A stretch of 64,000 nt of DNA from NCBI GenBank assembly GCA_021525805.1, contig GCA_021525805.1_3940.1. One strand, 5' to 3'. Source of the stretch: a phage. Shown in pieces: positions 15,069 through 62,364 of the stretch. A program made the translations under genes and the position numbers. Within the stretch, counting starts at the first letter, position 1. Each line of letters begins with the position of its first letter. The notes under the pieces are model-generated. The model was given only the letters and a program-made list of their open reading frames with translations, ran no database searches and had not been told where the DNA came from.

Positions 15069-16235
15069 ATGGCAGTAGGTGAAATTCAAATTAGTGCCTT
15101 GCCTCAAGCAGCCTTACCAATTGACCTTAGTGATATCTTCCATCTTAAGCAGGGTATTGAGGATAAGAGATGTACTCTTGAGCAACTACTTGCTCCACAC
15201 TCAAGCCTAAGAAATAACCCTCATGGTGTTACTAAGACACAAATTGGTTTAGATAACGTTATTAATGCTCTCCAGTTAGTTGCTGAAAATAACTTATCAG
15301 ATATTGTTAATGTAGCTGAGGCAAGAGCAAATCTACAGATTATGTCTTCAGAAGAGGTTAATAATCTTATCCAACAACATATTAATGATAAGAGTAACCC
15401 ACACAATACAACTAAGGCGCAGGTTGGTTTAAGTAATGTCCAGAACTGGACAACATCTAACCTTTATAATGAAGATGCAGATAAGTATGCTACAGCAAGA
15501 GCAGTAAATAACTTGTACAAGGCTGTTCAGGCTTCTTATCCAGTAGGTACTATCCATCTCTCTATGAATCCTGCAAACCCCTCTACATATTTAATTTGTG
15601 GAGGTACTTGGGAGTTAGTTTCAAAAGGAAGAGCACTTGTAGGTTATGATAGTGCTTCTAGGCCAGTTGGTTCAACGTTTGGTTCGCAGACTACTGCACT
15701 GACAGTTAACAACATTCCTGCACATACTCACTCAGTATACGTCACTGGTGGTGGTCACACACATGGTGCAACAATGTCTATTAGTTCCTTTGATTATGGT
15801 ACTAAGACAACATCTAGCTTTGACTATGGAACTAAAACCACTAACACGACTGGTGCTCACACCCACTCAGTGAGTGGCTCAACGAACACAACGGGTGCAC
15901 ATACACATGGTTATATTACTGGTTATCAATCAACAGGTGCATCTGGAGATTGGGACAGGGATGGTCACAGAAATACCGTACAAACGGATAGTGCTGGGAA
16001 TCACTCACACTCAGTAAGTGGTACTGCTGCATCAAATGGTGACCATGCTCACACTTTAAATATTGGTTCACACACCCATGTAATTAATATTGGTTCACAC
16101 ACTCACAGTGGCAGTGTGAGTATTTCAACAACAGAGCACTCACACTCTGGTACAACTGGTTCTACAGGTTCTGGACAAGCATTCAGTATTGAACAACCGT
16201 CCTTTGTCCTGTATGTATGGCAGAGAACAGCTTAA
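15069..16235 (+). CDS. Tail fibre protein (short) with His-rich HxH tip
   Basis: C-terminal HTHS/HTHG/HSHS/HAHT motifs; tip region shares two near-identical DNA blocks with the long fibre gene. Confidence 0.6.
   Translation: MAVGEIQISALPQAALPIDLSDIFHLKQGIEDKRCTLEQLLAPHSSLRNNPHGVTKTQIGLDNVINALQLVAENNLSDIVNVAEARANLQIMSSEEVNNLIQQHINDKSNPHNTTKAQVGLSNVQNWTTSNLYNEDADKYATARAVNNLYKAVQASYPVGTIHLSMNPANPSTYLICGGTWELVSKGRALVGYDSASRPVGSTFGSQTTALTVNNIPAHTHSVYVTGGGHTHGATMSISSFDYGTKTTSSFDYGTKTTNTTGAHTHSVSGSTNTTGAHTHGYITGYQSTGASGDWDRDGHRNTVQTDSAGNHSHSVSGTAASNGDHAHTLNIGSHTHVINIGSHTHSGSVSISTTEHSHSGTTGSTGSGQAFSIEQPSFVLYVWQRTA
15839..16053 (+). repeat. Fibre-tip duplication, copy 1
   Basis: Blocks 15839-15915 and 15948-16053 are near-identical to 18474-18550 and 18583-18688; the ~30 nt between them differs. 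Confidence 0.7.
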
Positions 16236-16281: not shown

Positions 16282-18810
16282 ATGGCAGATTACAAGTTGA
16301 GTGAATTAAACTCAATCGATACAGTTCGTTCAGACGACCTTCTTCATATCAGGGTTAAAAAGAGACCTGAAATGCTTGGTGATGAAGACCGCCGAATGAC
16401 CTATCAAGATTTCTTAGCATCTTTTAAACTAGAAAGGTTTGTTCAGATTGCTGGTAGCACTATGACGGGTGACTTAGGAATTGTTAAGTTACTTTATGGT
16501 GGCAAGGTAGTCTTTGACCCTACAGGCTCTTCTGAGATTACTATGGGGGATGTTTTAAAGACTTTTAAAATTAATGCAAATGGTCTTAAACTAACTATTG
16601 CAGATGCTTCAAGGTCTGCAACTGTTTATCATACTCTTAATAAGCCAAGTCCTAATGAGCTTGGAATGAGAACCAATGAAGAGAACGATGCAAGATATGC
16701 AAGGCTTGCTGTAACAAACACATTCTCTAGAAATCAGCACATTCAAAGTGATGGTAACGCACTTCGCCTTAGAAACCAGATTGCAAATAATGCACAATAC
16801 ATTGAGGGTGTAAACCTAGATGGCTCAGCTAGATGGTGGGTTGGTATTGGTAGCAATGGCGATGATGCAGTAAGCTTGTATAACAACAAATACAACTCAG
16901 CAGTGACTGTTGCAAGCAATATCTCTGTTAATAAGTCTTTAGCAATTACTGGTCAAGTTCAGCCTTCTGACTTCTCTAACTTAGATGCTAGATACTTTAC
17001 TCAGACAGCAGCTAATCAGAGATTTGCGCAGCTAGTTGGTAATAACACCTTCAGTGGTTTAAACACATTCAGTAATAATGTCAATGTGAACTCTGATGGT
17101 GCTGCTATCATTCTAAAAAATAAAACGGTCAATGAGACTCTGTTCATCCTAGCAAAGGACAGTGAAAACAATAATTTGTGGTATATTGGTAAAGGTGATG
17201 TAACCTCTAATATCACAATTTATGATTACAAGGGGGACACTTCCATTAAATTAAACGCGTCTGGTGTAACATTTAGTAAGACTGTCAAAATCACTGGTCA
17301 AGTACAACCTTCTGACTGGACTAACATTGATTCTAGATACATTCCAGCAGCTACTTTGAATAATCTTCCTAAACTTAATGTGTCTAATACTTTCACAAAT
17401 ACACAGACTATTGTTGCTAACAATGAAGGGTTGATTGTTAAGAATTTGACACAAAATCAACCTTTGTATATCCGTGGCGTGGATACTGCGAATGTGTCTA
17501 GGTGGTGGTTAGGTGTAGGTGGCCCAGATTCTACTGATGTATCCTTAAACAACAGTTTCTCTGGGACTCAAATTACTCTTTCAAGGTCATTAATTACGGC
17601 TAACAAGAACTTTGCTATTACTGGTCAAGTTCAACCTTCTGATTGGTCTAACATCGATGAGAGATACTATAACAAATCATCCGCTGATAACCGGTATCTG
17701 AGAGTAAGGAGCACTGGATTCAATACTGGTGGTGCTGGTAAATGGGCTAAGATTGCTACTGTCAGTATGCCGCAAGCCACATCAACAGCGGTGATTGAAC
17801 TTTTTGGGGGGGCTGGATTTAACTTTGGCTCAGTTGACCAAGCCTGTAAAACAGAAATTGTTCTTAGGACAGGGAATGGTGACCCAAAAGGCTTAAATGT
17901 TGTTGCATGGAAAAACTCACCGAATACTGTTGTAAGTCAAATTGGGTATGTTAATACCTCTGGTGATAACTATGACATCTATTGCGCAGTTGGCAACTAT
18001 CAAAACGCTACGACAGCTAGGGTTCAGTCATCATCTAATGCAACAGTACAACTGTTTGAGTTTCCAGAGACATCTGACAACGCCCCATCTGATTATGTTG
18101 CTGGCACAATTGCTTACTATTACACTAGTCTCTTGAAGCCAAGCCCTTCAGATATTGGTGCATACACTAAAGCAGAAACTGACCAGAAGATTGCACAGGC
18201 AGTAAGTGACTCTACAGACCTTAATAAAATCTACCCAGTAGGTATTGTAACGTGGTTTAACAGTAATGTTAACCCTAATACAGCACTGCCTGGTCTAACT
18301 TGGACGTATCTGAACAACGGTGTTGGTAGAACTATCAGAATTGCAGCAGCAAATGGTTCAGATGTTGCTACAACTGGTGGTTCAGATTCTGTGACGTTAG
18401 CTGTTGGGAACTTGCCTTCACACACTCACAGTTTTTCTGCTACCACTTCATCTTTTGACTACGGAACAAAAAACACTAACACGACTGGTGCTCACACCCA
18501 CTCAGTGAGTGGCTCAACGAACACAACGGGTGCACATACACATGGTTATACTACTGGTGCGCAACCAAGTGGTACAAGGGGTGATTGGGACAGGGATGGT
18601 CACAGAAATACCGTACAAACGGATAGTGCTGGGAATCACTCACACTCAGTAAGTGGTACTGCTGCATCAAATGGTGACCATGCTCACAGTGTTGGTATTG
18701 GTGCTCACAGCCATACAGTGAGTGGTAACACTGGAAGTACAGGTTCTGGTTCAGCATTTAGTGTAACTAACCAGTTCTATAAGTTAATGGCTTGGGTGAG
18801 AACTGCTTAA
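16282..18810 (+). CDS. Tail fibre protein (long) with three internal repeats and His-rich HxH tip
   Basis: 842 aa; three ITGQVQPSDW(S/T)N(I/L)D.RY repeats; C-terminal HxH tip duplicated from/with short fibre. Confidence 0.65.
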   Translation: MADYKLSELNSIDTVRSDDLLHIRVKKRPEMLGDEDRRMTYQDFLASFKLERFVQIAGSTMTGDLGIVKLLYGGKVVFDPTGSSEITMGDVLKTFKINANGLKLTIADASRSATVYHTLNKPSPNELGMRTNEENDARYARLAVTNTFSRNQHIQSDGNALRLRNQIANNAQYIEGVNLDGSARWWVGIGSNGDDAVSLYNNKYNSAVTVASNISVNKSLAITGQVQPSDFSNLDARYFTQTAANQRFAQLVGNNTFSGLNTFSNNVNVNSDGAAIILKNKTVNETLFILAKDSENNNLWYIGKGDVTSNITIYDYKGDTSIKLNASGVTFSKTVKITGQVQPSDWTNIDSRYIPAATLNNLPKLNVSNTFTNTQTIVANNEGLIVKNLTQNQPLYIRGVDTANVSRWWLGVGGPDSTDVSLNNSFSGTQITLSRSLITANKNFAITGQVQPSDWSNIDERYYNKSSADNRYLRVRSTGFNTGGAGKWAKIATVSMPQATSTAVIELFGGAGFNFGSVDQACKTEIVLRTGNGDPKGLNVVAWKNSPNTVVSQIGYVNTSGDNYDIYCAVGNYQNATTARVQSSSNATVQLFEFPETSDNAPSDYVAGTIAYYYTSLLKPSPSDIGAYTKAETDQKIAQAVSDSTDLNKIYPVGIVTWFNSNVNPNTALPGLTWTYLNNGVGRTIRIAAANGSDVATTGGSDSVTLAVGNLPSHTHSFSATTSSFDYGTKNTNTTGAHTHSVSGSTNTTGAHTHGYTTGAQPSGTRGDWDRDGHRNTVQTDSAGNHSHSVSGTAASNGDHAHSVGIGAHSHTVSGNTGSTGSGSAFSVTNQFYKLMAWVRTA
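18474..18688 (+). repeat. Fibre-tip duplication, copy 2
   Basis: See copy 1. Confidence 0.7.
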
Positions 18811-23087: not shown

Positions 23088-23350
23088 CTACTGCCATCCT
23101 TCCATACCTCACCACGCAAGACCAAACCATGCCGTACTCCACTTCACAGGACCAAGCATCACTTAAAAATCCTCTTAGAAAGACTCTTAAGTGATGTAAT
23201 CGAATTTTTATGTAGCTCCGATTAACTACCCATACCTCACCTTACCACGCCGAACAGCACCGGACTATACCAGGCCATGCCGAACATTGCCGAGCCTCAT
23301 TAAAAGACCCTCTTAAAGACCTTTTAAAAAGGAGCCTCCGAGGAGGCTAC
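23088..23350. repeat. Non-coding island A: two units (23088-23196, 23226-23350) of pentamer-tract plus stem-loop
   Basis: Tandem NNACC pentamers on + strand (atacc, tcacc, ttacc, aaacc, atgcc ...), very G-poor; unit 1 ends in palindrome catcacttaa...ttaagtgatg; unit 2 ends in cattaaaagaccctcttaaagaccttttaaaaagg plus GC hairpin. Confidence 0.7.
23322..23350 (-). terminator. Rho-independent terminator (minus strand)
   Basis: On minus strand: hairpin agcctcctcggaggct followed by a T-run, directly after stop of gene 23360-23806. Confidence 0.5.
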
Positions 23351-24484: not shown

Positions 24485-24769
24485 CTACTACCATCCACCC
24501 ATACCATACCGAACCTTACCTTACCAAACCAGACCGCGCCTTACCAAACCAGACCAAACATTACTTTACCCTACCTCATTAAAAAACCCTCTTAAAGACC
24601 TTTTAAAAAGGTAAGTCTCATTTTAATGTAGATGAGACTAACTACCCATACTGTACCGCACCTGACCCGACCTGACCAGACCTAGCATTACCGTGCCACA
24701 CCGTACCGAACAGAACACTACCATACCTCACATCACTTAAAAACCCTCTTAGAAGACTCTTAAGTGATG
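24485..24769. repeat. Non-coding island B: two units (24485-24640, 24641-24769) of pentamer-tract plus stem-loop
   Basis: ~17 tandem NNACC pentamers (atacc atacc gaacc ttacc ttacc aaacc agacc ...); hairpin agtctcat/atgagact; unit 2 ends in same catcacttaa...ttaagtgatg palindrome as island A. Confidence 0.7.
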
Positions 24770-27118: not shown

Positions 27119-27309
27119 TACTCAATATCAATAAGTTCTTGTGCAATGCTTTTCAGATTACCTTTCAAGAAAACCTTCTCAGAACCTGAAAGAGATGAAT
27201 TGTCAATTAACCTGTTCATTCTCTCAAACAACTTCTGCTTACGATTCTTGATAGTTTCCTTTGAAGCACCTTTCATCATCGCTGCATGGGTTCTTCCACG
27301 GTGACTCAT
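27100..27309 (-). CDS. Hypothetical small basic protein
   Basis: 69 aa ORF. Confidence 0.3.
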   Translation of the reverse strand: MSHRGRTHAAMMKGASKETIKNRKQKLFERMNRLIDNSSLSGSEKVFLKGNLKSIAQELIDIEYWRHQK

Positions 27310-27360
27310 AAGTCCTCCTATACAAGATATAGTATAAGGTACTCTTCCCTGAGCACCTTG

Positions 27361-27894
27361 TCAACTTAGTTTTGCAAACTCTCCGTGGAGTTTGATAGCA
27401 GCTTCACAGTAAGCTTTATGGGCTTCTTCAGGGGTGTCATGGTGACCTAAAAACATCTTCTTACCTTTATAACTTATCTGTGCGACCCACTTACCAGACT
27501 CCTTCTTAAGACTTACACCCTTGTACCCAGATTTATTGGTGACTGGTTTACCTTTATTCCAAGCACTTTGAAAGTCATCTGCTTCCCTTAAGTTTACAAT
27601 CCTGTTGTCAAGTGAGTCTCCGTTGATATGGTCAATGATACCTTTTGGCATCTTGCCATACACGTAAAGCCATGCGAGTCTGTGTGCTTTATGTGCTTTC
27701 TTGCCAAAATAGATACTAATCTGTTTATGACCACTTGAATCAGTCTGGATATTACCTGCCACCTTTCCTGCATAATTACTGTTAAAAACACTAACAGCTC
27801 TTGATTTACCTTCTCTACGAAGCCAAGTAAAGACCCCTGTTTCGGGGTCATAGTGCAGCAGCTCCTTTAAACGTTTTTGTAAAATTAAATCCAT
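27361..27894 (-). CDS. HNH homing endonuclease (paralog 1)
   Basis: HNH-type motif IDHINGDSLDNRIVNLR; paralogous to 37489-37980 with shared YDPETGVFTW segment; inserted between other genes. Confidence 0.6.
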   Translation of the reverse strand: MDLILQKRLKELLHYDPETGVFTWLRREGKSRAVSVFNSNYAGKVAGNIQTDSSGHKQISIYFGKKAHKAHRLAWLYVYGKMPKGIIDHINGDSLDNRIVNLREADDFQSAWNKGKPVTNKSGYKGVSLKKESGKWVAQISYKGKKMFLGHHDTPEEAHKAYCEAAIKLHGEFAKLS

Positions 27895-27897
27895 TAA

Positions 27898-30597
27898 TCA
27901 ATGTACCTCCAACCAGCTCTTGCCAACCTTTGCTGTACCAGTTACAAGTGTTTCTTTCCTCAAACCTAAGTTTTTTGAAGCTTGTCCATACATCCAGTCA
28001 GCAATTGCTTTCATATCCTGTGTCATACCCTCTGGACATTCCCAACTATTTTCATCGTGATATGCCAGAAGTAACCTTGCTCCGATAGCTGGTTTTCGAG
28101 CATTCAGTTTTGTCAGGCCATCTTCACAGGCTTTTCTTGCTGCTAGGTTGATGGCCTCATTCTGAATCTGTGCTTCCGAACTCATCAGGAGGTAGTTCAG
28201 TAGTTTATGTGGAGATTTGCACCATATCCATGCTCCAGCGACCCTGATATAACCACCTTTAGCAATTGAAGAATTCTTCCCAAAAACCTCTTCCAGAGCC
28301 TTTTTAGACGCCTTAAAATCGGCTTCTAAGCTATCAAGTAACTTCTTAATCTTTGGCAGACGCATATAGTAAGTTTGTTTAGTCAATGCACCCTCTTCCG
28401 TAGATGATGCCTTGATAGTTTTTGCAAACTTCTCGTCTCCGGCTCCAAATAACAGGGCGTAGATGCCATTTTTGCTCTTCTTACGACCTTTTGTAATCTC
28501 GTGAAGAAGTTCCTCATCCTGTGTCTCCCTGCAACGAACAATATCCTCTTCTTTGTTAAGACCAAAGTAAATACTGTTCAGTGTATGCGCATCAGTCCCT
28601 GTGTAGACTTCATAGAGGTCATTTTCAGCATCATAACGCAGATACTTGTCAGTTTCTGGGTTAAGATACTTGTCAAGATGTTTACAGTAGTATCTACCAT
28701 CATCTTGCTTAGTGAACTCCACTGACTCTTTACCCTCAGTTACCGCTTTAGTGAAGTCTTCATCACCCATAAAGTTACAAAGGAGAACTAGCTGGGCTGA
28801 GTTTTGGTCAACAGAAACAATGTTAGTCCCCTCTTCACAAATCCACACTGCCCTCATAGGTGCTCCGTAGACAGCAGCACCAGACGGTACGTTTACAATA
28901 CCATACTGTGTCATACGTCCAGTTGAAGTACCAAACACCATTGCACCAGCACTAAGGCGACCATCAGGACGAATCTGGTTCAACCAACCTTTTTCATCAT
29001 CCTTTGAGTTCTCAATAGTTCTGCGTCGGTGCATCAAAGTATAGTATTTAGCAATCTTCTGTCCAAGCTCACCTTCAATTGTATCATAAGATGATTCAGT
29101 AAGCTTTGGTGAAGTACGGATTAAGCAAGGCTCAAGCAAATCTGTGTATTTCTTCACAGACCAGTTATGCTCAATGTACTGTACACCTTCATGCTCAACA
29201 TAGCTCAAACCACACCGCTCAACCATTTCCTGCCACTTAGGATGCTTTGTAATCATCTTTTTATTGTCTTTGAAACGACAAACCTTAACAGGACGACCAT
29301 CTGAGTCTTTCTTGTAGTTCCAGTCATCTGGAATCCAACCAACTGATTTCAAGTAGTCTTTAACAACTGCTACCTGAGTCATACGAGAAACTTCGAACTC
29401 AATTGGTGTATATGGTGCATCAATCAAACCTGTGTAGCGACTTGACTCAAGTTCAAAGTGATTGACAACGTGACTGTTATAGTACTTCACAGTCTTGACT
29501 GTTTTTACTGGTTTCCAGTCTTTGCATTTTTTGCCAATCTTTGCATTCAACTCGTTGCAGATTGCACGAGCATCCTTCATTGCTACAAAGCCTTCCTTGT
29601 ATTCTTCACCAGTTACAGTGTTGGTTGGCGTATAGCAATTCCTTTTTTCAATGTTAAAAATCTTTGTAGTTGGCTTACCAAATGGCTTGATTTCATATGT
29701 CTGCATCTCACCGTTACGTACCTGCTGACGATACTTTGTCTTAGGGTACTTGGTAATTCTTTTCAGTCCATCTGCATGACCGAATGTTTCAACATACTCA
29801 TTCCAAGCTTTTGCAAACTCTTCTCCAGTGACTTTACCTTTGGTCTTAATAGTTGGAGGTAGATGTGGTTCAACCTCTGAAGCAAGCTCATTAGTCAACT
29901 TGTCAAGTTCCTTTACATGGAACTCCATAAGCTCTTTATCAGCTTTCCAGCCATTGATAGCTTGTTGACTCATCCAGAAAGATGTTTCTTTAGCTCGCAT
30001 GTAGGTTTCATAAGTGTCTATGCCACACTTCTTAAGCTTGAGATATTCATTATCAAGTGCCCGTTTAGTTTTGGCGTTAATACGGATATCTTCTACAACA
30101 CGAGTGAAGATTTCTGCATTCCACACACCCCAATGTTCAATCTCTGGTTTACGAACACCAACACGAGCACCCCATGCAGCCAAACCATGAGCACCTTTAT
30201 AACCCTTTGGAGTTGGTCTATCCATCCACTGAACACGAGACTGGATAAGAGAATCCTGAAAGAAATTACTCCACGGTTTACACTTTGGATTATCAAAGTT
30301 CCATAAATCAGGTGCAATGTGATTGAAAACCCACCAGTCATAACCGAGGCCGTTATGGATGCAAAGTCGTTTTGCCTTTAACGCAAACTCAACACCTTCA
30401 CGTAAACCACCCTTGATGTACTTAGTGTACTTGTGACCGAGGATAGGCTCATCTGTAAAGACCCATACAGGTGGCTCTTCATCGTCAGATTTATAATCTG
30501 CGAAAGCCATTACGTGCACTTTAGTGAACTCAAGGAGTAAACCATCAGTTTCTGTATCACCAACTAAATGTAAGTTTTTAAAATCTACGTTTTCCAT
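27898..30597 (-). CDS. DNA polymerase, family A (Pol I-like) with 3'-5' exonuclease domain
   Basis: Exo I motif GDTETDGL; family A motif A-like VSVDQNSAQL, motif B-like RKKSKNGIYALLFG, motif C-like YHDE. Start at 30597 (ATG after AGGGAG) preferred over track start 30627. Confidence 0.8.
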   Translation of the reverse strand: MENVDFKNLHLVGDTETDGLLLEFTKVHVMAFADYKSDDEEPPVWVFTDEPILGHKYTKYIKGGLREGVEFALKAKRLCIHNGLGYDWWVFNHIAPDLWNFDNPKCKPWSNFFQDSLIQSRVQWMDRPTPKGYKGAHGLAAWGARVGVRKPEIEHWGVWNAEIFTRVVEDIRINAKTKRALDNEYLKLKKCGIDTYETYMRAKETSFWMSQQAINGWKADKELMEFHVKELDKLTNELASEVEPHLPPTIKTKGKVTGEEFAKAWNEYVETFGHADGLKRITKYPKTKYRQQVRNGEMQTYEIKPFGKPTTKIFNIEKRNCYTPTNTVTGEEYKEGFVAMKDARAICNELNAKIGKKCKDWKPVKTVKTVKYYNSHVVNHFELESSRYTGLIDAPYTPIEFEVSRMTQVAVVKDYLKSVGWIPDDWNYKKDSDGRPVKVCRFKDNKKMITKHPKWQEMVERCGLSYVEHEGVQYIEHNWSVKKYTDLLEPCLIRTSPKLTESSYDTIEGELGQKIAKYYTLMHRRRTIENSKDDEKGWLNQIRPDGRLSAGAMVFGTSTGRMTQYGIVNVPSGAAVYGAPMRAVWICEEGTNIVSVDQNSAQLVLLCNFMGDEDFTKAVTEGKESVEFTKQDDGRYYCKHLDKYLNPETDKYLRYDAENDLYEVYTGTDAHTLNSIYFGLNKEEDIVRCRETQDEELLHEITKGRKKSKNGIYALLFGAGDEKFAKTIKASSTEEGALTKQTYYMRLPKIKKLLDSLEADFKASKKALEEVFGKNSSIAKGGYIRVAGAWIWCKSPHKLLNYLLMSSEAQIQNEAINLAARKACEDGLTKLNARKPAIGARLLLAYHDENSWECPEGMTQDMKAIADWMYGQASKNLGLRKETLVTGTAKVGKSWLEVH

Positions 30598-30657
30598 TTT
30601 TACTCCCTCTAAAATCATTAACCTCATACATTACTGCAAAAAATTATAAAAAGCAAG

Positions 30658-30686
30658 TTGACAATGCACTTGACAAGGTGTTAATC
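30658..30686 (+). promoter_or_regulatory. Candidate sigma70-like promoter in divergent intergenic region
   Basis: TTGACA, 17 bp spacer, TTAATC; weak -10. Confidence 0.25.
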
Positions 30687-30854
30687 TTTGCGAAGTGGGT
30701 TTTTACTTAAAAGGTTACTTAACAGTTTAACTATACAGATACTTTAAAACTCTTAAAAGATTATTTAATAGCTTTTAAAAAGCTTTAAAGTATAACGTAT
30801 AGAATACGTTAAGATAAAAGATTAAAACTTAATAGTTACTTAAAAGAGGCTTAC

Positions 30855-31277
30855 ATGCAGAAAATGTTTGTTCACCCAGACATAGCTGACTTTGTTAGAG
30901 CTTTGCAGAAGTTGGAAGAACTTGACATTGCTGCTCAACGGGAATATGCTCACCATCACAGGAGAATGGTTGATATACAACATGAAATAGAGTTGTCTGA
31001 AAACTATGAAGATGACTTAAAATGCTCTGTATTTGAGCATATGAAAGATGTTGCTACAGCGAGACGTAAAGCTAAAGACACAGTTGCTTTACTAGATTCT
31101 CTTAAAAAGAGGTTGCAAAGTGGTACAGACCTGTGTAATCTAGCGTCACTGATTAACGATGTTGAAACTTCTTGTGATAGGCACTATTATCCACGTTCTG
31201 AAAAGACACTTGACTTTTCTTCATCCGAAAACTTAAAATGTTCTAGAAAGAAACTCAACCAACTGAGAGAGAAATAA
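30855..31277 (+). CDS. Hypothetical protein
   Basis: 140 aa ORF opening rightward operon. Confidence 0.4.
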   Translation: MQKMFVHPDIADFVRALQKLEELDIAAQREYAHHHRRMVDIQHEIELSENYEDDLKCSVFEHMKDVATARRKAKDTVALLDSLKKRLQSGTDLCNLASLINDVETSCDRHYYPRSEKTLDFSSSENLKCSRKKLNQLREK

Positions 31278-31278
31278 T

Positions 31279-32079
31279 ATGAATATCAATGTAGAAAAGA
31301 TGCTTGAAGAAAAAGGTATTGACGAAGCGTTCTTAATCAATGCCGTAGAAAGCATGGCTATGATTCTTCGTGGCAACAACTACACAGAACAGTTTATGCC
31401 TGCAAGCTATAACTTGCCTGAAGACAAGTCTGATAACGGTGCTTTTGCAGAACAGGTCAACATGATGCTTTGCGACAAAACACTTGCTTTAGCATCTATC
31501 GTTGTAGGTGTTGATGCTCTTGCAGAGTTCATTTTTTATGAGATGCAGAAAAATGACTATATTGCCATGACCACTGAAGAAAAAGACTTGCTACTACTCG
31601 CAGGTAATGATGAACTAATTGACCTGTTAATTTCATCAACTAGTGCTGTTATGGCTGCTCTTGAGAAGCGCATGGAAGAGAAACTTTCACGATATGAAAA
31701 ACTTGATTGGGGTGTAGAAGAATTAAACCCACGAATCAAAGAGATTATCCAGCAAACTAAAGAGTCTTTGGAAGAAGCTGTTGAGAATGACTCTGTAGCT
31801 GACATCGAACCACTTCAGGTGAAAGTTGCACTGATGATTCCAGCTATCTCTACGATGATGAATATCGTTGCGCTAGTCCAACTGTCACAGATGATGAGTG
31901 TGAGTATTGAGTTCATTGAGGAGATGACTGGTGGTGTCAGTATGCAAGCAATCAACGATGTTTTGGTGAACATTGGTGCTTCCATCATTGAAGAGAAACT
32001 ACGCATTAACTTCGGTGATGATTTTGTGAAGCAACTTTCAGCTATGGCTGAAAAAGAGTCTGCTGAGCAACTGCACTAA
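31279..32079 (+). CDS. Hypothetical acidic protein
   Basis: 266 aa ORF followed by terminator. Confidence 0.4.
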   Translation: MNINVEKMLEEKGIDEAFLINAVESMAMILRGNNYTEQFMPASYNLPEDKSDNGAFAEQVNMMLCDKTLALASIVVGVDALAEFIFYEMQKNDYIAMTTEEKDLLLLAGNDELIDLLISSTSAVMAALEKRMEEKLSRYEKLDWGVEELNPRIKEIIQQTKESLEEAVENDSVADIEPLQVKVALMIPAISTMMNIVALVQLSQMMSVSIEFIEEMTGGVSMQAINDVLVNIGASIIEEKLRINFGDDFVKQLSAMAEKESAEQLH

Positions 32080-32097
32080 GTCTTTATAAATTTTACA

Positions 32098-32122
32098 AGC
32101 CTCCTTAGTTGGGGGCTTTTTA
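32098..32122 (+). terminator. Rho-independent terminator
   Basis: Hairpin agcctcc/gggggct followed by T-run. Confidence 0.5.
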
Positions 32123-32140
32123 GTAATTAAGGGAGTTAAA

Positions 32141-32884
32141 ATGAGTAATATTATTGCATTTACTGGAAAGGCACGTTCTGGAAAAGACACCTCGTGTTCT
32201 ATTGTGAAGAATATCTTAGAGGATGAGTACGGCTACAATGTTGCAGTAATGGCCTTTGCAGACAACCTTAAACTATCTGCATCAAAGATATTTGACCTGA
32301 CTTGGAATGACCTGTATGGTGAAACTAAAGAGACTCCACAGGTATTTGACTTATCATATCCTGAACTGATGTTTAAAGTTACGGAAGCTATGGAGTTCAC
32401 CTTCAGAGATGAACGTTACCATATGGACTTCAAGCTTATGTCAGAGTTAACCGGACGATTAATCATGGAGCTTAAGAAGGTTGCTAAACCGACTCTATTG
32501 ACACGTCTGGGTTTTAGCAAAAAGTATAAATTCTCATCAAGACAAATTCAACAGATTTGGGGCACTGAAGTTATCCGTAAAGTTATGGGTGACAAGTTCT
32601 GGTCTAAAGACCTTGAAAAAAGAATGGTTAGATTCCATGAAAGTTGTTCACTTAGAAATCAATATGGTTTTGTCTTAATCAGTGATTTAAGATTTGACTC
32701 TGAAGTTGAGTGGCTGAGTAGATTTGCACACCAAACCATTGAAGTAAAAAGAGACAATGTTGGCAAAGTTTCATCACATGTTTCAGAAAATGGGATTTCT
32801 ACCAAATATGCGCGTGACATTATCCATAATAATGGTACTCTTATAGACCTTGAGAACAAGCTAAGAGCCATCATTAAAGTTTAA
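32141..32884 (+). CDS. Deoxynucleoside monophosphate kinase-like P-loop protein
   Basis: N-terminal GKARSGKDT P-loop, as in phage dNMP kinases. Confidence 0.5.
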   Translation: MSNIIAFTGKARSGKDTSCSIVKNILEDEYGYNVAVMAFADNLKLSASKIFDLTWNDLYGETKETPQVFDLSYPELMFKVTEAMEFTFRDERYHMDFKLMSELTGRLIMELKKVAKPTLLTRLGFSKKYKFSSRQIQQIWGTEVIRKVMGDKFWSKDLEKRMVRFHESCSLRNQYGFVLISDLRFDSEVEWLSRFAHQTIEVKRDNVGKVSSHVSENGISTKYARDIIHNNGTLIDLENKLRAIIKV

Positions 32885-32892
32885 AAGAGAGA

Positions 32893-33093
32893 ATGAAGAT
32901 GAGAGTAAAAGACAATTTTAAAGTTATTGACTACCGTTTAGTGGAACTCTCATCTCTTTCCGATGAGGTGATGATTGAACGCCTTAAGAGAGTTGAATCA
33001 CGAAGGAAAGAGATTGCAGATGAAATTCATGAACTGGACAAGATTGAAAATGGATTGAAGGCAGAACTACAACGAAGAGGTGCTAATGTCTAA
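32893..33093 (+). CDS. Small coiled-coil protein
   Basis: 66 aa ORF. Confidence 0.3.
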   Translation: MKMRVKDNFKVIDYRLVELSSLSDEVMIERLKRVESRRKEIADEIHELDKIENGLKAELQRRGANV

Positions 33094-35071
33094 AGGTCGT
33101 AAATTGAAAGAGGCTGGTCAGTTTATTGGTCATTGTGCATGTCCACGTTGTGGTTCATCAGATGCTGGTTCAATCTATCATCATGACGATGATTCTTATT
33201 CTATGACTTGCTTTAGCTGTAACAAAGGTTTCCCAGAGTGGGATTTTGATAAAGGACAAATCGTGAGCACTTATTCTACTGGTTCAGATAACAAAAACCG
33301 TACTTTCCGTGGAATGGATTTAGACGATGTAAAAGAAAACCTAGAAGCAATGGACTTGAAAGATAGGAAGATTCCTGCAAAAGTCCTTGAACGCTTAGGT
33401 ATCAAGGTTGACATTGACAGTGACGGTGAAATTGATGCACATTTCTACCCAACTTACAAACGCAATGAAGATGGTAAGCTAGAGCATGTTGGCTACCGTG
33501 TTCGTCACCGTTATCCCGAAGACCATCCAAAAGAACACCTACGTGGTAAGCTAAAAGACTTCTCAGGTGGTGTTGGAGACATTAAAGGTGAACTGGCAAT
33601 GTTCGGTTCATGGATTGCTCCAGAAGGTGGTAACCGTCTATTCATCTGGGAAGGTGAGATGGAATGTGCGACAGCAATCTATATGACTTCTCTTGCGATT
33701 AAGGACAAGTCTCGTCGTAAGAATTACTGTCACGTATCTGTCCCATCAGGTGCAAACATTAAGTCTATCAAAGACAACTATCAGTACATCACATCATTTG
33801 ATGAGATTTACTTGTGCTTTGATAATGATGAAGCAGGTGCTAAAGCCACTAAAGAGGCTGCTGGCATTCTCCCTATCGAGAAGGTTCGTTTATTCCAGTA
33901 TCCAGAGGGTGTGAAAGACCTTAACGAGTGGTGGACAAAGTTCTATAAAGAGAAAGATACAGTTCTGGAAGGATTTAAGCAGCGTATCTACAACGCACCT
34001 CGTTACTGCCCTGCTGGTATCAAGAACTTTGCAGACGGTTTTGAGGCAATGAAGAATCGTGGTCAGATTCCATTGATTCCTTTCCCAGAATCTTTCGGGG
34101 ATTTGAACAGACTGACTTATGGTGGTTACGGTTTAGGTGAGATTACAACTCTGGCAGCACCATCCTCAGTAGGTAAATCAGCTTACACCCGTGAAATGAT
34201 TTACACTGCTTGGAAAGAAACTGATTATAATATTGGTGTAATTCCTGTAGAAGATACCTATGAAGAGTTGATGGAGATGCTCTGTGCAATCCACCTTAGC
34301 AAGCAGATTTCTGAGATTCCTTATGATGAACGTGATTGGGATGAATTGAAGGAGGCACACGCAGAACTGTCTAAAGGTCGTCGTATCCACATCGTTGACC
34401 ATCAAGGGGCAATTGACCAAGATAACTTGCTGGAATTTGTTGACTATCTTGTTAATAGTTTAGACTGTAAGATTATTATTCTTGACCCTATTACGTTGGC
34501 TCTGTCACGTTCAGATACGGATGAAGAGGAAGTTTTGTCTGAGCTATTGCGTCGTTGTAAACGCTACCAGTATGCACAGGTTAACGTCTGTCACGTTCGT
34601 AAGAGTGCAGGTGGTCAGAAGGCTAACTCTGAAGGTGGGGATATCTCTGAAGAGGATATTAAAGGTTCTGGTGCGTATTTCCAGATTTCTATGAACAACA
34701 TCCTGTTAATGCGTAACAAGGTTGACCCAGACCCTGTTAAGAAAAACTTGACAAAAATCAAGCTAACTAAATGTCGTCGTCACGGTAAGTCAACGGGTAT
34801 TGCTGGCCATACTTGGTACAATCCAGACACAGGACGTCTTATCAAAGCATCGGGTTGTGGAGTTGACATTGATGGTGCAGCAGAAAATATTCGTCAACAG
34901 TTTGGTATTGGTGAAGCTGAAGACCATTATGATGACTCTTTGCCTCATTATGAGGATGAAGTGTTTGACCGTGAAACTGGTGAAGTCTATACTGATGAGC
35001 AGCGTCAAAGCTCAACGATTCCACCTGTATTAAGTGAGGATGCAGATGACTGCCCGTTCGAAACTGAGTGA
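33080..35071 (+). CDS. Primase-helicase (zinc-ribbon primase, TOPRIM, DnaB-like helicase)
   Basis: N-terminal CxxC...CxxC zinc ribbon (CACPRCG ... CFSCNKG); Walker A-like SSVGKSAY in C-terminal helicase half; T7 gp4-like architecture. Confidence 0.75.
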   Translation: MLMSKGRKLKEAGQFIGHCACPRCGSSDAGSIYHHDDDSYSMTCFSCNKGFPEWDFDKGQIVSTYSTGSDNKNRTFRGMDLDDVKENLEAMDLKDRKIPAKVLERLGIKVDIDSDGEIDAHFYPTYKRNEDGKLEHVGYRVRHRYPEDHPKEHLRGKLKDFSGGVGDIKGELAMFGSWIAPEGGNRLFIWEGEMECATAIYMTSLAIKDKSRRKNYCHVSVPSGANIKSIKDNYQYITSFDEIYLCFDNDEAGAKATKEAAGILPIEKVRLFQYPEGVKDLNEWWTKFYKEKDTVLEGFKQRIYNAPRYCPAGIKNFADGFEAMKNRGQIPLIPFPESFGDLNRLTYGGYGLGEITTLAAPSSVGKSAYTREMIYTAWKETDYNIGVIPVEDTYEELMEMLCAIHLSKQISEIPYDERDWDELKEAHAELSKGRRIHIVDHQGAIDQDNLLEFVDYLVNSLDCKIIILDPITLALSRSDTDEEEVLSELLRRCKRYQYAQVNVCHVRKSAGGQKANSEGGDISEEDIKGSGAYFQISMNNILLMRNKVDPDPVKKNLTKIKLTKCRRHGKSTGIAGHTWYNPDTGRLIKASGCGVDIDGAAENIRQQFGIGEAEDHYDDSLPHYEDEVFDRETGEVYTDEQRQSSTIPPVLSEDADDCPFETE

Positions 35072-35323
35072 TAGCTATAAAAGAGAGGGGTTCATACCCT
35101 TCTTTGAAGAAAAAAGTTTAAATAAATTTCAGGAAGAGTGTTTGACAAAGGTTGATAGGTTCTATAGAATGCTCTACATGAAATGTGATGGGGGTGTCGA
35201 AGTAGAGAAAAAGTACTATCACAATACTGTCACAGTCATCATCACTATACCTGAACATAATATTGGTTGGCTGTTTGTAATAAAAGAAAATGTGTTTGAA
35301 TATCAAGTATATCGGAGAATATC

Positions 35324-35473
35324 ATGAAACACTCTAAAGCATTTGAAAAAGTTTTTGGGGATTCCTTAAAAGCCACTGCTGGAAAACCAGCAAAATACTA
35401 TGAAGAGAAGCGTGTAAGAACTGGAAAAACTGCACGTAAAGCAGCTTCTAAAGATAAGCACAACTTCCAGTAA
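35324..35473 (+). CDS. Small basic protein (49 aa; not in ORF track)
   Basis: ATG at 35324 with GGAG 6 nt upstream; reads MKHSKAFEKVFGDSLKATAGKPAKYYEEKRVRTGKTARKAASKDKHNFQ. Confidence 0.3.
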   Translation: MKHSKAFEKVFGDSLKATAGKPAKYYEEKRVRTGKTARKAASKDKHNFQ

Positions 35474-35480
35474 TTAATGT

Positions 35481-35509
35481 TTGACAATAGAGTATCAACA
35501 AATTAGAAT
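35481..35509 (+). promoter_or_regulatory. Sigma70-like promoter
   Basis: TTGACA, 17 bp spacer, TAGAAT upstream of SSB-like gene. Confidence 0.5.
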
Positions 35510-35545
35510 TGGTACTCTTCATAAATTGAGATAGAGGTTTAAATA

Positions 35546-36403
35546 ATGTCTAAAGTTGTTAAAATGAAAGCTCCGGTAGAGAAGTACAACGGTACTGAAC
35601 GTCAAACTCTGCGTTACCTTCTGAAAGATGTCTGGTTTTATTACCTGAACACTTCACCACGTCCGGGAAAAGGTAAGTCTATTGATAAGAAATTTCCAGG
35701 CAAAGATTGTAACTACAGCGTATCAATTCTGGCAGAAGACGGTAACAAACTGTTTAAAGAGTTTACTAAGTCTAAGAAAAATCCAGAAGGCTGGGATAAA
35801 GTCACTACTGAAGCAGTTGATGCAGACGACTTTGAAGAGAAGTTTGGTTGTAAACCACCTTTTGAAGCAGACACTTACTACATCTTGAAAGTAAGTCGTG
35901 CAGCAGCTTATAAAGATGGTGCTGTATGGACAGCTAAACAGTCATTCCCTGTAATGCTGATTGAAGAAGTAAATGGTAAGCGTGTAGCTGTTAAGCAGCC
36001 GATGAAGAAAATCAAAGCTCAAGCATCTGACAAACACGAAGATGACAAGAACTATGATGTAATTCATCCAGATATTGCAGTTGGTAACGGTTCTTTTGGT
36101 AGTGTGATTCTTTCTACTCACTTCTACACTTTTGAGAACAATGTTCTGACAAAACCTATTCAGGAACAGTTTATCATTGATACTCTTGTACCTTACACTG
36201 GTGGTAACGGTGCTAATGGTGAACCTGAACTGGATGAAGATGAACTAGCTATGCTTGGTCTTGATGGTGTTGAAGATAACGGTGAAATCACTGAAGAAGA
36301 CGCAACAGACCATAAATCTTCGAATGATTCTGATGATGGTGATGATGAAGACTTGCCAGACCCAGATGACGAAGAAGATGAAGACTTCGATACAGAAGAT
36401 TAA
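35546..36403 (+). CDS. Single-stranded DNA-binding protein (candidate) with acidic C-terminal tail
   Basis: C-terminus DDGDDEDLPDPDDEEDEDFDTED resembles acidic tails of phage SSBs; sits in replication module. Confidence 0.45.
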   Translation: MSKVVKMKAPVEKYNGTERQTLRYLLKDVWFYYLNTSPRPGKGKSIDKKFPGKDCNYSVSILAEDGNKLFKEFTKSKKNPEGWDKVTTEAVDADDFEEKFGCKPPFEADTYYILKVSRAAAYKDGAVWTAKQSFPVMLIEEVNGKRVAVKQPMKKIKAQASDKHEDDKNYDVIHPDIAVGNGSFGSVILSTHFYTFENNVLTKPIQEQFIIDTLVPYTGGNGANGEPELDEDELAMLGLDGVEDNGEITEEDATDHKSSNDSDDGDDEDLPDPDDEEDEDFDTED

Positions 36404-36420
36404 TCTCTAAAGTTACTTTA

Positions 36421-36449
36421 AAGCCCTGTACTCCGTATGGGGCTTTTTC
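36421..36449 (+). terminator. Rho-independent terminator
   Basis: Hairpin aagccc/gggctt followed by TTTTT. Confidence 0.5.
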
Positions 36450-36464
36450 ATATGGAGAGCCATA

Positions 36465-37511
36465 ATGGAGAAGTACACATTAACAAAACTTCCCGATTCA
36501 GTTACACATGTTTTTATTGACTCTGACAGTATTGCCTATAAAGGTGCTTGTGTAGTTGAGAAAGCAAAGTATAAATATGTCAATAAACTCACAGCAGAAG
36601 AGTCTGAACCATTTGATAATGCGAAAGATGCTGCAAGATGGTTAGCAGACCAGAGAATCCTTGTGGAAGAGCTTGGCCTGACATTTGATGAAGATGAATG
36701 GGAAAGACAGACTTGGAAAGAAGCTAAGAGTGAAAAAGAAGCTATCATGGCTACTCAACAGGTGCTTCAGGAATGGCTTAAGGTTGTTGGTAAAGAAAGA
36801 ACTTGGGTAGGTTATTTAACAGAGAAGGGTGTGCATAAACATAAAGACATTAAAGGTCTTGAGCACCAATATCAAGGTAATCGTAAAGATGCTGTCACAC
36901 CAACACACTTAGTTGCTTGTCGTGAGTATCTTCTGTCAAGACCAGAGTTCAAATTGATTCTTGATGGATTTGAAGCTGACTCTATCGTAATTGCTAAAGC
37001 TGAAAAGATGGGTAAAAAGGCTGCCTTAATGAGTATTGATAAAGACCTTCGACAAGCTGAAGGGACTTACTGTATTGATATGACTTATGAAAAGTCGCCT
37101 TTGATTTTCATTGCTGATAACAACGTTGGTGAAATTTGGGATTGTCCAATAAAATCGACACCAAAAGCTAAGAAGACAGTTGGGGTAGGTTTTAAATTTC
37201 TTTGTTACCAAGCTGTGGCTGGTGATAATGCGGATAACTATTTTGGTTTAAAGGGCGTTGGTAAGGCTGCTGTAATGAAAGCCCTTGAAGGTAAAACTAC
37301 TTACAAAGAGTGTCTTGATGCTATCTATGAACTTTATGCTAAGAAAGAGTCATACACTTATGTCTCGTGGGATGGTCAAACAATTACCAGAACACCTTTA
37401 GAGTTAATGCAGCAACACTTTTTCTTAGCTTATCAGGAAAGAAACAAGAAAGACGATTTTACTTTTGATAAGTATGGGTGGACACCAAATGTTAACTCAA
37501 CAAACTCTTAA
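36465..37511 (+). CDS. 5'-3' exonuclease / flap endonuclease (RNase H-like)
   Basis: N-terminal acidic cluster VFIDSDSIAY; helix-hairpin-helix-like GLKGVGKAAV. Confidence 0.55.
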   Translation: MEKYTLTKLPDSVTHVFIDSDSIAYKGACVVEKAKYKYVNKLTAEESEPFDNAKDAARWLADQRILVEELGLTFDEDEWERQTWKEAKSEKEAIMATQQVLQEWLKVVGKERTWVGYLTEKGVHKHKDIKGLEHQYQGNRKDAVTPTHLVACREYLLSRPEFKLILDGFEADSIVIAKAEKMGKKAALMSIDKDLRQAEGTYCIDMTYEKSPLIFIADNNVGEIWDCPIKSTPKAKKTVGVGFKFLCYQAVAGDNADNYFGLKGVGKAAVMKALEGKTTYKECLDAIYELYAKKESYTYVSWDGQTITRTPLELMQQHFFLAYQERNKKDDFTFDKYGWTPNVNSTNS

Positions 37512-37980
37512 AGAGTACCTACATTATGACCCCGAAACAGGGGTCTTTACTTGGATTAAGAAGTCTGCTAGACACACAAAAATTGGCTCTGTTGCAGGTA
37601 CAAATTTAAAAGGTTACACCAGAATTTATTTGTTTGGTAAGGGCTATTATGCACATACACTAGCTGTTCTGTATATGGATGGTTACCTCCCTGAGTGTGT
37701 TGACCATAAAAATCATGTAACACTAGATAACCGCTGGGTAAATCTTAGAGCATGTACGTTATCAGAGAACCAATGTAATAGATTGCTCAATAAGAACAAT
37801 AAATCAGGTGTTAAAGGTGTGTACTACAAAAAACAGTATGGTAAGTGGTCTACACAGATAACTTTTAAGAAGAGGGTCTACTTCTTCGGCAACTATGACA
37901 CTATTGATGAAGCAGCAGAGGTTGTAAATAGGGAACGTCAACGTTTACACAAAGAGTTTGCTAATAAAGGTGATGAATGA
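37489..37980 (+). CDS. HNH homing endonuclease (paralog 2)
   Basis: HNH-type motif VDHKNHVTLDNRWVNLR; shares a 30-nt identical stretch with paralog 1; track start 37465 is TTG. Confidence 0.6.
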   Translation: MLTQQTLKEYLHYDPETGVFTWIKKSARHTKIGSVAGTNLKGYTRIYLFGKGYYAHTLAVLYMDGYLPECVDHKNHVTLDNRWVNLRACTLSENQCNRLLNKNNKSGVKGVYYKKQYGKWSTQITFKKRVYFFGNYDTIDEAAEVVNRERQRLHKEFANKGDE

Positions 37981-38477
37981 GAAAAATAAAAGGTTTTGGC
38001 AATTGCCCTGAATATGGACATTGGGTTTCACTATGTGGTGAAGTTGACCCAGCAAAGCACTTTGGTTTTGTCTACCTAGTGTACTGCAAAAAGACTGGAC
38101 AGTACTATTTGGGTAAGAAACAGTTTAATAGCGTGACCAAAAGAAAAGTTGCTGGTAAGACTCGGAAGAAGGTAGTCACTAAGGAGAGTGATTGGATGAC
38201 TTATGAGACTTCTTCTGAGTATATTAAAAAAGATATTGAGAGCTTTGGAAAAGAATTTTTTGACTTTTACATTATCCAGACCTACTACACAAAAGGTGGC
38301 CTAGTCTATGGTGAAGCAAACCTTCAACATAAATTCGATGTAATGACAAAAAGGATTGACTCGAAGCTCAGACTCTTCTACAATGCCAATATTGCAGCAA
38401 TTAAGTTTATTACTAAAGAAACTTATGAAGATGCTGAAAAAAGAATCCATAAGGTAATGAAAGCAAATCGTGCTTGA
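37977..38477 (+). CDS. GIY-YIG endonuclease-like protein (candidate)
   Basis: GFVYLVYCKKTGQYYLGKK resembles GIY...YIG motif spacing. Confidence 0.4.
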   Translation: MRKIKGFGNCPEYGHWVSLCGEVDPAKHFGFVYLVYCKKTGQYYLGKKQFNSVTKRKVAGKTRKKVVTKESDWMTYETSSEYIKKDIESFGKEFFDFYIIQTYYTKGGLVYGEANLQHKFDVMTKRIDSKLRLFYNANIAAIKFITKETYEDAEKRIHKVMKANRA

Positions 38478-55420: not shown

Positions 55421-55425
55421 AGTGT

Positions 55426-55455
55426 TTGACAAGGGGCTTTGAAGCCCCTTAGAAT
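55426..55455 (+). promoter_or_regulatory. Sigma70-like promoter with hairpin in spacer
   Basis: TTGACA, 18 bp spacer containing ggggc-tttgaa-gcccc, TAGAAT. Confidence 0.45.
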
Positions 55456-55499
55456 AACCTCACAAAATGATTTATTAACTAACAAGAGAGAGTAATAAG

Positions 55500-61256: not shown

Positions 61257-61463
61257 ATGCTTTATAGTCGTGAATTGATGGTTACAACTAACGTTAACAC
61301 AAAGGTAAAACGTTTTTACATGCAAGTATGTGGCGCATGGTCCAGAATATCAGAAGCTGACTACTGCAACTATGTAGAAACGGCTATTAATTCTAATTGC
61401 TACCTTACAAGAAATACAAGAAAGCACATAAGACAGACAGCAATTTACTACTACGATAGATAA
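61257..61463 (+). CDS. Small early protein
   Basis: 68 aa; conserved leader ctaaactggaga...aaaatg upstream. Confidence 0.4.
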   Translation: MLYSRELMVTTNVNTKVKRFYMQVCGAWSRISEADYCNYVETAINSNCYLTRNTRKHIRQTAIYYYDR

Positions 61464-61468
61464 AGTAC

Positions 61469-61504
61469 TTTACAAGGGGCTTATAGTTCGATAAAGTAAG
61501 CCCC
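61469..61504 (+). promoter_or_regulatory. Promoter-hairpin cassette R1
   Basis: TTTACA, 17 bp, TAAAGT overlapping hairpin ggggctta/taagcccc, then conserved leader and RBS. Confidence 0.5.
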
Positions 61505-61549
61505 AGATAAAGAGCTTTACTAACTAACCTTAAACTAGGAGATTCAAAA

Positions 61550-61930: not shown

Positions 61931-61938
61931 TAAAGTAC

Positions 61939-61974
61939 TTTACAAGGGGCTTATAGTTCGATAAAGTAAGCCCC
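61939..61974 (+). promoter_or_regulatory. Promoter-hairpin cassette R2
   Basis: Near-identical to R1. Confidence 0.5.
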
Positions 61975-62018
61975 AGATAAAGAGCTTTACCACTCAATCC
62001 TAAATTGGAGATTCAAAA

Positions 62019-62276: not shown

Positions 62277-62284
62277 TAAAGTAC

Positions 62285-62320
62285 TTTACAGGGGGCTTAA
62301 AAGCTGATATCTTAAGCCCC
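62285..62320 (+). promoter_or_regulatory. Promoter-hairpin cassette R3
   Basis: TTTACA, 17 bp, TATCTT; hairpin ggggcttaa/ttaagcccc with a different loop. Confidence 0.5.
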
Positions 62321-62364
62321 AGATAAAGAGCTTTACCACTAAATCCTAAATTGGAGATTCAAAA

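Follow-up and report, generated by a model that had tools for sequence, protein, structure and literature searches.

A hairpin-forming palindrome in the invariant peptide motif of two HNH homing endonuclease genes of a Felixounavirus

The 64,000-nt stretch of phage DNA analysed here (the window; contig GCA_021525805.1_3940.1 of GenBank assembly GCA_021525805.1) derives from a Felixounavirus (Ounavirinae; top match Escherichia phage vB_EcoM_ULIM9, 96% over 11.6 kb) and carries two diverged homing endonuclease genes (HEGs) of the HNH type, HNH1 and HNH2, that share an exact 30-mer containing the inverted repeat GACCCC-GAAACA-GGGGTC. The arms of this repeat, GACCCC and GGGGTC, are constant in every Ounavirinae allele examined, comprising seven diverged groups and both loci, as well as in Erwinia phage Omen, while the loop between them, the wobble positions flanking them and the rest of the gene drift; on the evidence of these allele comparisons, the arms of the hairpin or palindrome are thus under selection at the nucleotide level.

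Constraint on the stem arms of the shared motif

The 30-mer, TATGACCCCGAAACAGGGGTCTTTACTTGG, occurs at exactly two places in the window, 27823–27852 (minus strand; codons 15–24 of HNH1) and 37525–37554 (plus strand; codons 13–22 of HNH2), identified by exact matching and translation and encoding YDPETGVFTW in both cases. No further copy is present in the window at up to three mismatches, and none appears in 100 shuffles; likewise, tblastn and a degenerate pattern retrieve no additional HNH paralogs from the window. The original prediction, which had described the shared segment with its peptide and inverted repeat and had regarded the two genes as diverged elsewhere, holds on both counts: the proteins are 42% identical, and the DNA outside the motif is 52% identical over 151 aligned codons. 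At identical degenerate residues, the two genes use the same codon at 9 of 9 positions inside the motif and at 24 of 59 outside it, the synonymous comparison that the prediction had proposed. A recent whole-gene duplication, which equally high flanking identity would have indicated, is accordingly rejected. Chance and codon bias are rejected as well, since ten identical codons have a probability of 6e-4 given the codon usage of the 31 long open reading frames (ORFs) of the window, and the codons of the stem are the rarest in the phage. The five non-stem codons, TAT, GAA, ACA, TTT and ACT, are those that the phage prefers, and their coincidence by chance has a probability of 0.018. We infer that the 30/30 identity is the sum of peptide conservation, constraint on the stem and preferred codons at the remaining five sites, where some gene conversion may also contribute.

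The codons of the D-P (GAY CCN) and G-V (GGN GTN) pairs are nearly reverse complements of each other, with each wobble position facing a base fixed by the protein, so that four synonymous choices suffice to create a perfect hairpin. These four wobble bases, which complete the 6-bp stem, are invariant in all Ounavirinae allele types examined. Among 14 representative alleles from the seven groups, the D, P, G and V columns contain only GAC, CCC, GGG and GTC, whereas 21 of the 22 other columns with an invariant residue use two to four codons; the five other glycine columns use three or four codons each, and the second proline column has CCC in a single allele of the 14. Comparisons between groups find identical codons in 84 of 84 cases in the stem, 59 of 76 (78%) in the rest of the motif and 444 of 993 (45%) in the rest of the gene, counts that overstate the number of evolutionary events because the allele types are not fully independent lineages. 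The stem codons are rare in this phage (CCC, 3.2% of Pro; GGG, 7.8% of Gly; GTC, 11% of Val) apart from GAC (38% of Asp), and phage codon usage gives the four together a joint probability of 1e-4.

The 6-nt loop, by comparison, changes even non-synonymously while the arms stay intact: in addition to GAAACA (ET), it reads GATACA (DT), GAAATA (EI), GACAAA (DK; Felix O1 ORF218), TTAACA (LT; CHB7 gp37), TTAACG (Erwinia phage Omen) and GTCACA. The flanking wobble sites vary too (TAT/TAC, TTT/TTC/TTA/TTG and ACT/ACG/ACA), and Felix O1 ORF218 has the arms alone in common with other alleles, its loop and both flanks being different. In the phage database, searched for variants of the 30-mer through exact 28-mers, the synonymous C-to-T stem variants GAT, CCT and GTT are found 0, 0 and 0 times, as against 21 times each for the non-stem variants TAC and ACG and five times for the non-synonymous loop variant GAT. 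Selection on a stem or palindrome would be expected to leave such a stem-limited pattern; neither a gene-conversion tract nor chance nor a recent duplication would. Of the two explanations initially put forward for the exact identity, nucleotide-level selection or gene conversion, the first is therefore borne out by arms that stay fixed beside a varying loop and flanks, and the second, taken alone as a homogenised tract between paralogs, fails on the varying loop and adjacent wobbles.

The peptide is far more widespread than the hairpin. A degenerate pattern for YDPETGxFTW matches at least 120 IMG/VR loci, nearly all of which use other, scrambled codons, and family comparison shows Y-D-P-x-x-G-V to be an invariant N-terminal motif of the HNH_3-AP2 family. 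In a codon-blind sample of 80 homologous loci chosen by protein, a perfect 6/6 Watson–Crick stem is present at 13 of 13 Ounavirinae loci (GC 0.38–0.41) versus none of about 64 others, even though the contigs carrying the latter are more GC-rich. Full pairing with G-U pairs allowed is seen at 2 of the approximately 64, compared to 4–5 expected by a rough, unscripted estimate from wobble-base frequencies, and one unrelated family has identical non-stem codons but CCA, GGA/GGG and GTG in the stem, and consequently no hairpin. The idea that the hairpin is an inherent, family-wide product of the peptide is rejected on account of the scrambled IMG/VR codons and the lack of perfect stems in the protein-based sample.

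The exact 30-mer, whose search in other phages had also been suggested, occurs at 111 places in 101 phage records, all Felix O1-like except for two labelled Campylobacter, and at 12 places in IMG/VR. The hairpin form of the motif has no match in 185,579 representative genomes of bacterial and archaeal species, and a metagenome scan yields only Ounavirinae-like copies and copies like that of Klebsiella phage FZ14, plus a few GC-rich contigs where such codons are common. Records MG065664 and MG065668 ('Campylobacter phage A132/A126') and GU169904 ('Staphylococcus phage SA1') are 95–99% identical to the present Felixounavirus region, the two Campylobacter-labelled ones showing about 95% across the 11.6 kb, and are likely to be contaminated, chimeric or mislabelled. 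Outside the subfamily, the HNH genes of phage FZ14 (a Jedunavirus) and Cronobacter phage Ss1 have the same arms, yet their cores are nearest to hairpin-less homologs; Ss1 orf27 carries the hairpin without a detectable AP2 domain, and among the allele types AP2 domains are strongly diverged while the arms are identical.

Two mobile genes and their mosaic alleles

HNH1 (27361–27894, minus strand; 177 amino acids) and HNH2 (37489–37980, plus strand; 163 amino acids) are free-standing genes of the HNH_3-AP2 type. The HNH_3 domain (PF13392, cutoff 24.8 bits) scores 54.5 bits in HNH1 (E = 9e-15) and 44.4 bits in HNH2 (E = 1.3e-11); the AP2 domain (PF00847) of HNH1, which belongs to phrog_99, scores 46.3 bits (E = 5e-12), above the cutoff of 33.3, and matches the plant ERF AP2 structures 7wq5 and 5wx9, whereas that of HNH2 scores 21 bits (E = 4e-4), which is under the curated cutoff yet aligned at the same region. 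Directly 3' of HNH2 lies a SegE-like GIY-YIG homing endonuclease gene (37977–38477, plus strand; PF19835, E = 2.7e-27), so that the domains originally assigned to all three genes prove right. Both HNH genes thus have the domain architecture of a family (PF13392 plus PF00847; PHROG 99) first noted in Felix O1, RB49, cyanobacteria and ciliates (PMC5318435), from most members of which they differ by a hairpin that is specific to certain lineages (Ounavirinae, a Jedunavirus and phage Ss1).

Each HEG follows a co-oriented gene. Upstream of HNH1 is that of a family A DNA polymerase (27898–30627, minus strand; identified by Pfam DNA_pol_A and the ULIM9 annotation), with the HNH1 start 3 nt past the polymerase stop and a ribosome-binding site, GGAGGT, within the end of the polymerase gene. 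Upstream of HNH2 is the gene of a 5'-3' exonuclease (36465–37511, plus strand; identified by the annotation of relatives and a weak Pfam 5_3_exonuc match), whose final 23 nt HNH2 overlaps. Locus 1 is empty in phages Sf14 and Moogle, where the whole of HNH1 is absent as a clean indel (approximately 27366–27910), while Sf13 and SUSP2 lack the whole of HNH2, and at their empty locus 2 the exonuclease gene abuts the GIY-YIG gene at a clean junction. Genome comparison thereby shows HNH1 and HNH2 to be free-standing, mobile presence/absence HEGs encoding predicted homing endonucleases.

A scan limited to sigma-70-like sites finds no promoter directly upstream of HNH1 and a single weak promoter-like site (9 of 12) within the exonuclease gene, some 260 nt before HNH2. 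At the other end of HNH1, a promoter-like TTGACA-17 nt-TACCTT followed by a ribosome-binding site (27336–27364, minus strand) has a −35 box that overlaps the HNH1 stop and a −10 box that matches at 3 of 6 positions. The block is nearly invariant among the window, Sf14 and Moogle (Felixounavirus/Mooglevirus), HEG-less phages included, and this candidate promoter could restart transcription of the small downstream ORFs.

In different phages, both loci are occupied by strongly diverged alleles that fall into at least seven groups, with 34–58% amino-acid identity between groups. At locus 1, the last 79 nt of HNH1 (27361–27439, minus strand, ending in TPEEAHKAYCEAAIKLHGEFAKLS; delimited by blastn matches of 94–99% over gene positions 456–534, a windowed identity profile and a protein alignment) have 91–100% nucleotide identity across all allele types, with cores that are saturated. 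This 3' module marks the alleles as mosaic and cassette-like. It constitutes a second module conserved at the nucleotide level, for which a recombination border and a regulatory sequence are candidate explanations. At locus 2, the allele types are alike from the 5' end through the 30-mer, and the identity between HNH2 of the window and Felix O1 ORF257, 79–100% up to that point, falls to 33% directly after it; this drop need not reflect a crossover, since it coincides with a region whose protein sequence is variable across the whole HNH_3-AP2 family.

The genes next to the two HEGs have peculiarities of their own. The SegE-type GIY-YIG gene is labelled 'NAD synthetase' in the GenBank/RefSeq records of HY02, VpaE1 and Moogle and in PHROG 447, probably a propagated mis-annotation. 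Nineteen nucleotides into its ORF is a near-perfect 10-bp palindrome, GGCAATTGCC (37995–38004, plus strand), which is conserved in SUSP2, imperfect in Sf13 and too short for a stable hairpin. The polymerase gene of many relatives contains a group I intron of about 315 nt (Rfam RF00028, 63.3 bits; for example in phage garuso, and at 1849–2124 of L135), and relatives listing 'DNA polymerase (x2)' are intron-bearing records. The polymerase gene of the window is intronless, the corresponding site being at approximately 28452–28457 (minus strand), and its 3' segment (27806–28452) is 77% identical to that of garuso versus 93% upstream. The combination of a HEG-less intron and a free-standing HNH gene just downstream suggests homing that is collaborative or occurs in trans, in the manner of T4 mobE and I-TevIII.

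Possible roles of the hairpin

In the mRNA, the stem-loop GACCCC-GAAACA-GGGGTC begins 45 nt past the ATG in HNH1 (27832–27849, minus strand) and 39 nt past it in HNH2 (37528–37545, plus strand); the stem gives way to TTTACTTGG in both, at 27831–27823 and 37546–37554, respectively. The 18-mer folds with −11.4 kcal/mol (z = −3.5) and forms in the minimum free energy structure of both native contexts, with base-pair probabilities of at least 0.98 in the copies of the window and at least 0.91 in each of the 17 allele 5' regions tested, where the hairpin begins 39–51 nt after the likely start codon. The sense strand 3' of the stem reads TTTACTTG (UUUACUU), and the resulting U tract, UUUACUUG, with 5 U in 8, passes a simple terminator scan. 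Both copies top the list of 9 terminator-like sites in the 26.8–39.0 kb region, both on the sense strand, and the 64 kb contain no other CCCC-N3-9-GGGG motif. Sf14, Moogle, Sf13 and SUSP2 have no hairpin at their empty sites. Rfam 15 covariance models find no match at E up to 1 in 27300–28000 or 37400–38100.

Judging by this shape, the best-supported reading, with about an even chance of being right, is that the hairpin attenuates transcription as a weak intrinsic terminator near the 5' end of an apparently promoterless HEG. Acting in the mRNA 39–51 nt into the HEG, the stem-loop and its UUUACUU tail would stop part of the read-through from the upstream essential gene, polymerase or exonuclease; expression of the endonuclease would thereby be kept low, the upstream message would gain a structured 3' end, and downstream genes would be served by the remaining read-through or by a promoter at the 3' border of the HEG.

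The closest known parallel is mobE of phage T4, which is promoterless, is co-transcribed with nrdA and has a stem-loop 27 nt after its AUG, followed by a short U tract; this terminator stops approximately 30–50% of transcripts, a promoter in the 3' end of mobE serves the downstream gene, mobE-less phages lack the terminator, and segF has a similar 5' terminator (PMC2790892, PMC2988022). The genes of the window resemble mobE in being free-standing HNH HEGs directly after a co-oriented essential gene with no obvious promoter of their own, in having a GC-rich stem-loop soon after the AUG (39–51 nt here) and then a short U tract, poor in some alleles here, in that the element is kept in HEG-bearing phages and absent from HEG-less ones, and in the promoter (mobE) or promoter-like element (here) at the 3' border of the HEG. 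They differ in that mobE belongs to another HNH lineage, that its stem has 9 bp rather than 6 and its loop 4 nt rather than 6, that the present hairpin overlies an invariant peptide motif and recurs in many diverged paralogs at two loci and in at least three phage lineages, and that termination was measured in T4 whereas here it is inferred from sequence. The Felix O1 genome paper lists intergenic terminators only, and thus neither reports nor excludes this element, of which no description was found in the literature searched.

Several observations weigh against an attenuator. The U tract is short, with 3–4 U in 8 in alleles other than those of the window, and it is poor in some of them (TTCTACAA in Felix O1 ORF218 and TTCACATG in Omen, 3 U in 8 each); it is the stem that is conserved, not the tail. 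An RNA helix ought to accept G-U pairs, yet no stem variant of that kind was seen, which makes a DNA-level role possible, or else a demand for maximal stability in so short a stem. The candidate restart promoter is weak (3-of-6 −10 box) and lies below the promoter-scan threshold, and in Cronobacter phage Ss1 the ligase gene overlaps the HNH gene, with no evident room for a restart promoter. The incomplete independence of the allele types, mentioned above, belongs with these points.

Of the alternatives to an attenuator, the one that survives best, unlikely as it is, views the 30-mer as a recombination junction or gene-conversion patch, that is, a stretch of homology for exchanging HNH alleles between the two loci and between co-infecting phages, in which case any role in the RNA would be secondary or lacking. 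The PeSL stem-loops of T4-like phages are documented points of genetic exchange, and they share with the present element that they are short, conserved and repeated and offer possible micro-homology for shuffling; they lie at the borders of variable or replaced segments, as the 30-mer may too. They are, however, intergenic promoter–terminator composites, whereas the hairpin described here lies inside an ORF, has no adjoining promoter hexamers and is constrained by a peptide (PMC4122927). The mosaic alleles, with their common 79-nt 3' end at locus 1 and the drop in identity after the 30-mer at locus 2, speak for such exchange, as does the greater similarity of the non-stem motif codons (78%) relative to the remainder of the gene (45%). 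That FZ14 and Ss1 carry the hairpin on cores whose nearest homologs lack it fits the exchange of an N-terminal module. Conversion, on the other hand, homogenises whole tracts and does not predict invariant arms beside a variable loop and variable flanking wobbles, let alone an allele such as Felix O1 ORF218 that has only the arms in common with the others; moreover, the drop in identity falls where the protein is variable family-wide. There is also no sign of inversion between the two inverted copies, with 218 database records being colinear over the 11.6-kb interval.

Next in order, and improbable, is a role of the RNA hairpin other than termination: obstruction of 3' exonucleases, an entry or processing site for RNase E by which the half-life of the upstream polymerase or exonuclease message is determined, or an early pause of ribosomes entering the endonuclease ORF. 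Such a role draws on the structural and conservation evidence already given for an attenuator, and computation cannot tell the two apart; a stem that is better conserved than the U tract is in its favour, as is RNase E processing of the T4 segB, segG and Aeh1 mobE transcripts (PMC2988022). Against it, a hairpin 39–51 nt past the start is outside the initiation footprint, and elongating ribosomes easily unwind 6-bp stems.

Less probable again is a DNA palindrome bound by protein, be it an operator for the HNH-AP2 protein itself, a site for another phage or host factor, or a target of rival endonucleases. Strictly invariant arms around a variable spacer, together with the lack of G-U-type variants, are what a dimeric DNA site predicts, and the uniqueness of the two CCCC-N3-9-GGGG motifs in the 64 kb points the same way; single G4 or C4 tracts are nonetheless common in the window (78 + 36). 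It argues against such a site that Ss1 orf27 has the hairpin but no detectable AP2 domain, that the AP2 domains of the allele types are strongly diverged although the arms are identical, and that the position, 40 nt inside the ORF, is not at a promoter. The AP2 domain of a cyanobacterial HNH-AP2 protein is reported to bind poly(dG)/poly(dC). A preference of AP2 domains for GC-rich targets is stated in a passage of PMC10448857 that cites Magnani 2004, and autorepression by I-TevI is a precedent for an endonuclease that binds near its own gene (PMC2988022). The I-TevI operator is likewise a cis element tied to the gene of the endonuclease and limiting its expression, as proposed here, but it imitates the homing site and lies upstream of the ORF, where it overlaps a late promoter, whereas the present element is a perfect palindrome within the ORF. 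A T7-type primase site, with GGGTC on either strand, was considered in view of the gp4-like primase/helicase of the phage and set aside, since GGGTC and GACCC already occur 13 and 38 times in the window and there is no need to conserve one such site, and the spacing is unsuitable for a restriction palindrome of the DrdI/AhdI type, as read from the sequence.

In a more far-reaching and still more doubtful form, GACCCC-N6-GGGGTC would be not so much an RNA terminator as a DNA-level site common to all HNH-AP2 HEGs of enterobacterial virulent phages, bound by the AP2 domain, whose preference for GC-rich DNA would suit the CCCC/GGGG arms, or by the recombination machinery; at the same low probability, it would serve as an operator, an entry point or both, allowing alleles to repress, target or displace each other ('HEG-on-HEG homing'). 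Such a site would account for the strict absence of G-U variants, for the mosaic make-up of the alleles and for the occurrence of the element on the unrelated cores of FZ14 and Ss1 and, if real, would entail exchange of cassettes between loci and between phage genera.

Finally, we regard as very improbable that the palindrome has no function and reflects chance combined with peptide conservation and codon bias, a recent duplication, or neutral correction by template switching, which can perfect quasi-palindromes: although the peptide is invariant across the family and the five non-stem codons are phage-preferred and coincide in an unrelated family too, the low probabilities (6e-4 for the two genes compared, and 1e-4 in each lineage for the codons of the stem), the flanking identity of 52%, the recurrence of the pattern in seven diverged groups as well as in Omen, FZ14 and Ss1, and arms of six bp, short for efficient templated correction, all speak against it.

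Other repeats and significance

The window contains further repeats away from the two HEGs. Five copies of a unit of about 50 nt, TAAAGTACTTTACAAGGGGCTT...AAGCCCCAGATAAAGAGCTTTA, are found at 61448–62367, 63951–64000 and also 55418–55467, spaced by 346–470 nt; located between small genes, the unit combines a promoter-like TTTACA with a GC hairpin and resembles PeSL-like promoter/terminator cassettes. Blocks rich in ACC/CCA (23122–23332 and 24513–24754) consist of repeats of 59–99 nt that are 61–77% identical, each ending in ...TTAAAA(G/A)(A/C)CCTCTTA(A/G)A.... A 261-nt direct repeat (15819–16079 and 18454–18714; 91% identity) and three 88-nt repeats (16929–17688; spacing of about 330 nt) are probably paralogous or repetitive segments of tail-fibre coding sequence.

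In summary, HNH1 and HNH2 are ordinary free-standing HEGs of the HNH_3-AP2 family, and what sets them apart is a hairpin, similar to those of mobE and segF, that occurs in another HEG lineage and is superimposed on an invariant peptide motif. The motif provides an example of dual coding, in which four codons that include some of the rarest of the phage are fixed for the sake of a nucleic-acid structure, and of a constraint on synonymous sites that, if overlooked, would be misinterpreted in codon-based tests for selection and in genome recoding; as a short exact marker, the 30-mer also identifies this HEG family in the genomes of enterobacterial phages. Ounavirinae are used in the typing and biocontrol of Salmonella and E. 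coli. If the hairpin is indeed an attenuator, these selfish genes would hold their own brake in the synonymous sites of their most immutable peptide motif, where it would travel with every allele and survive extensive diversification, and the principle known from T4 mobE and segF would extend to a second widespread HEG family, HNH_3-AP2, and to the Ounavirinae.

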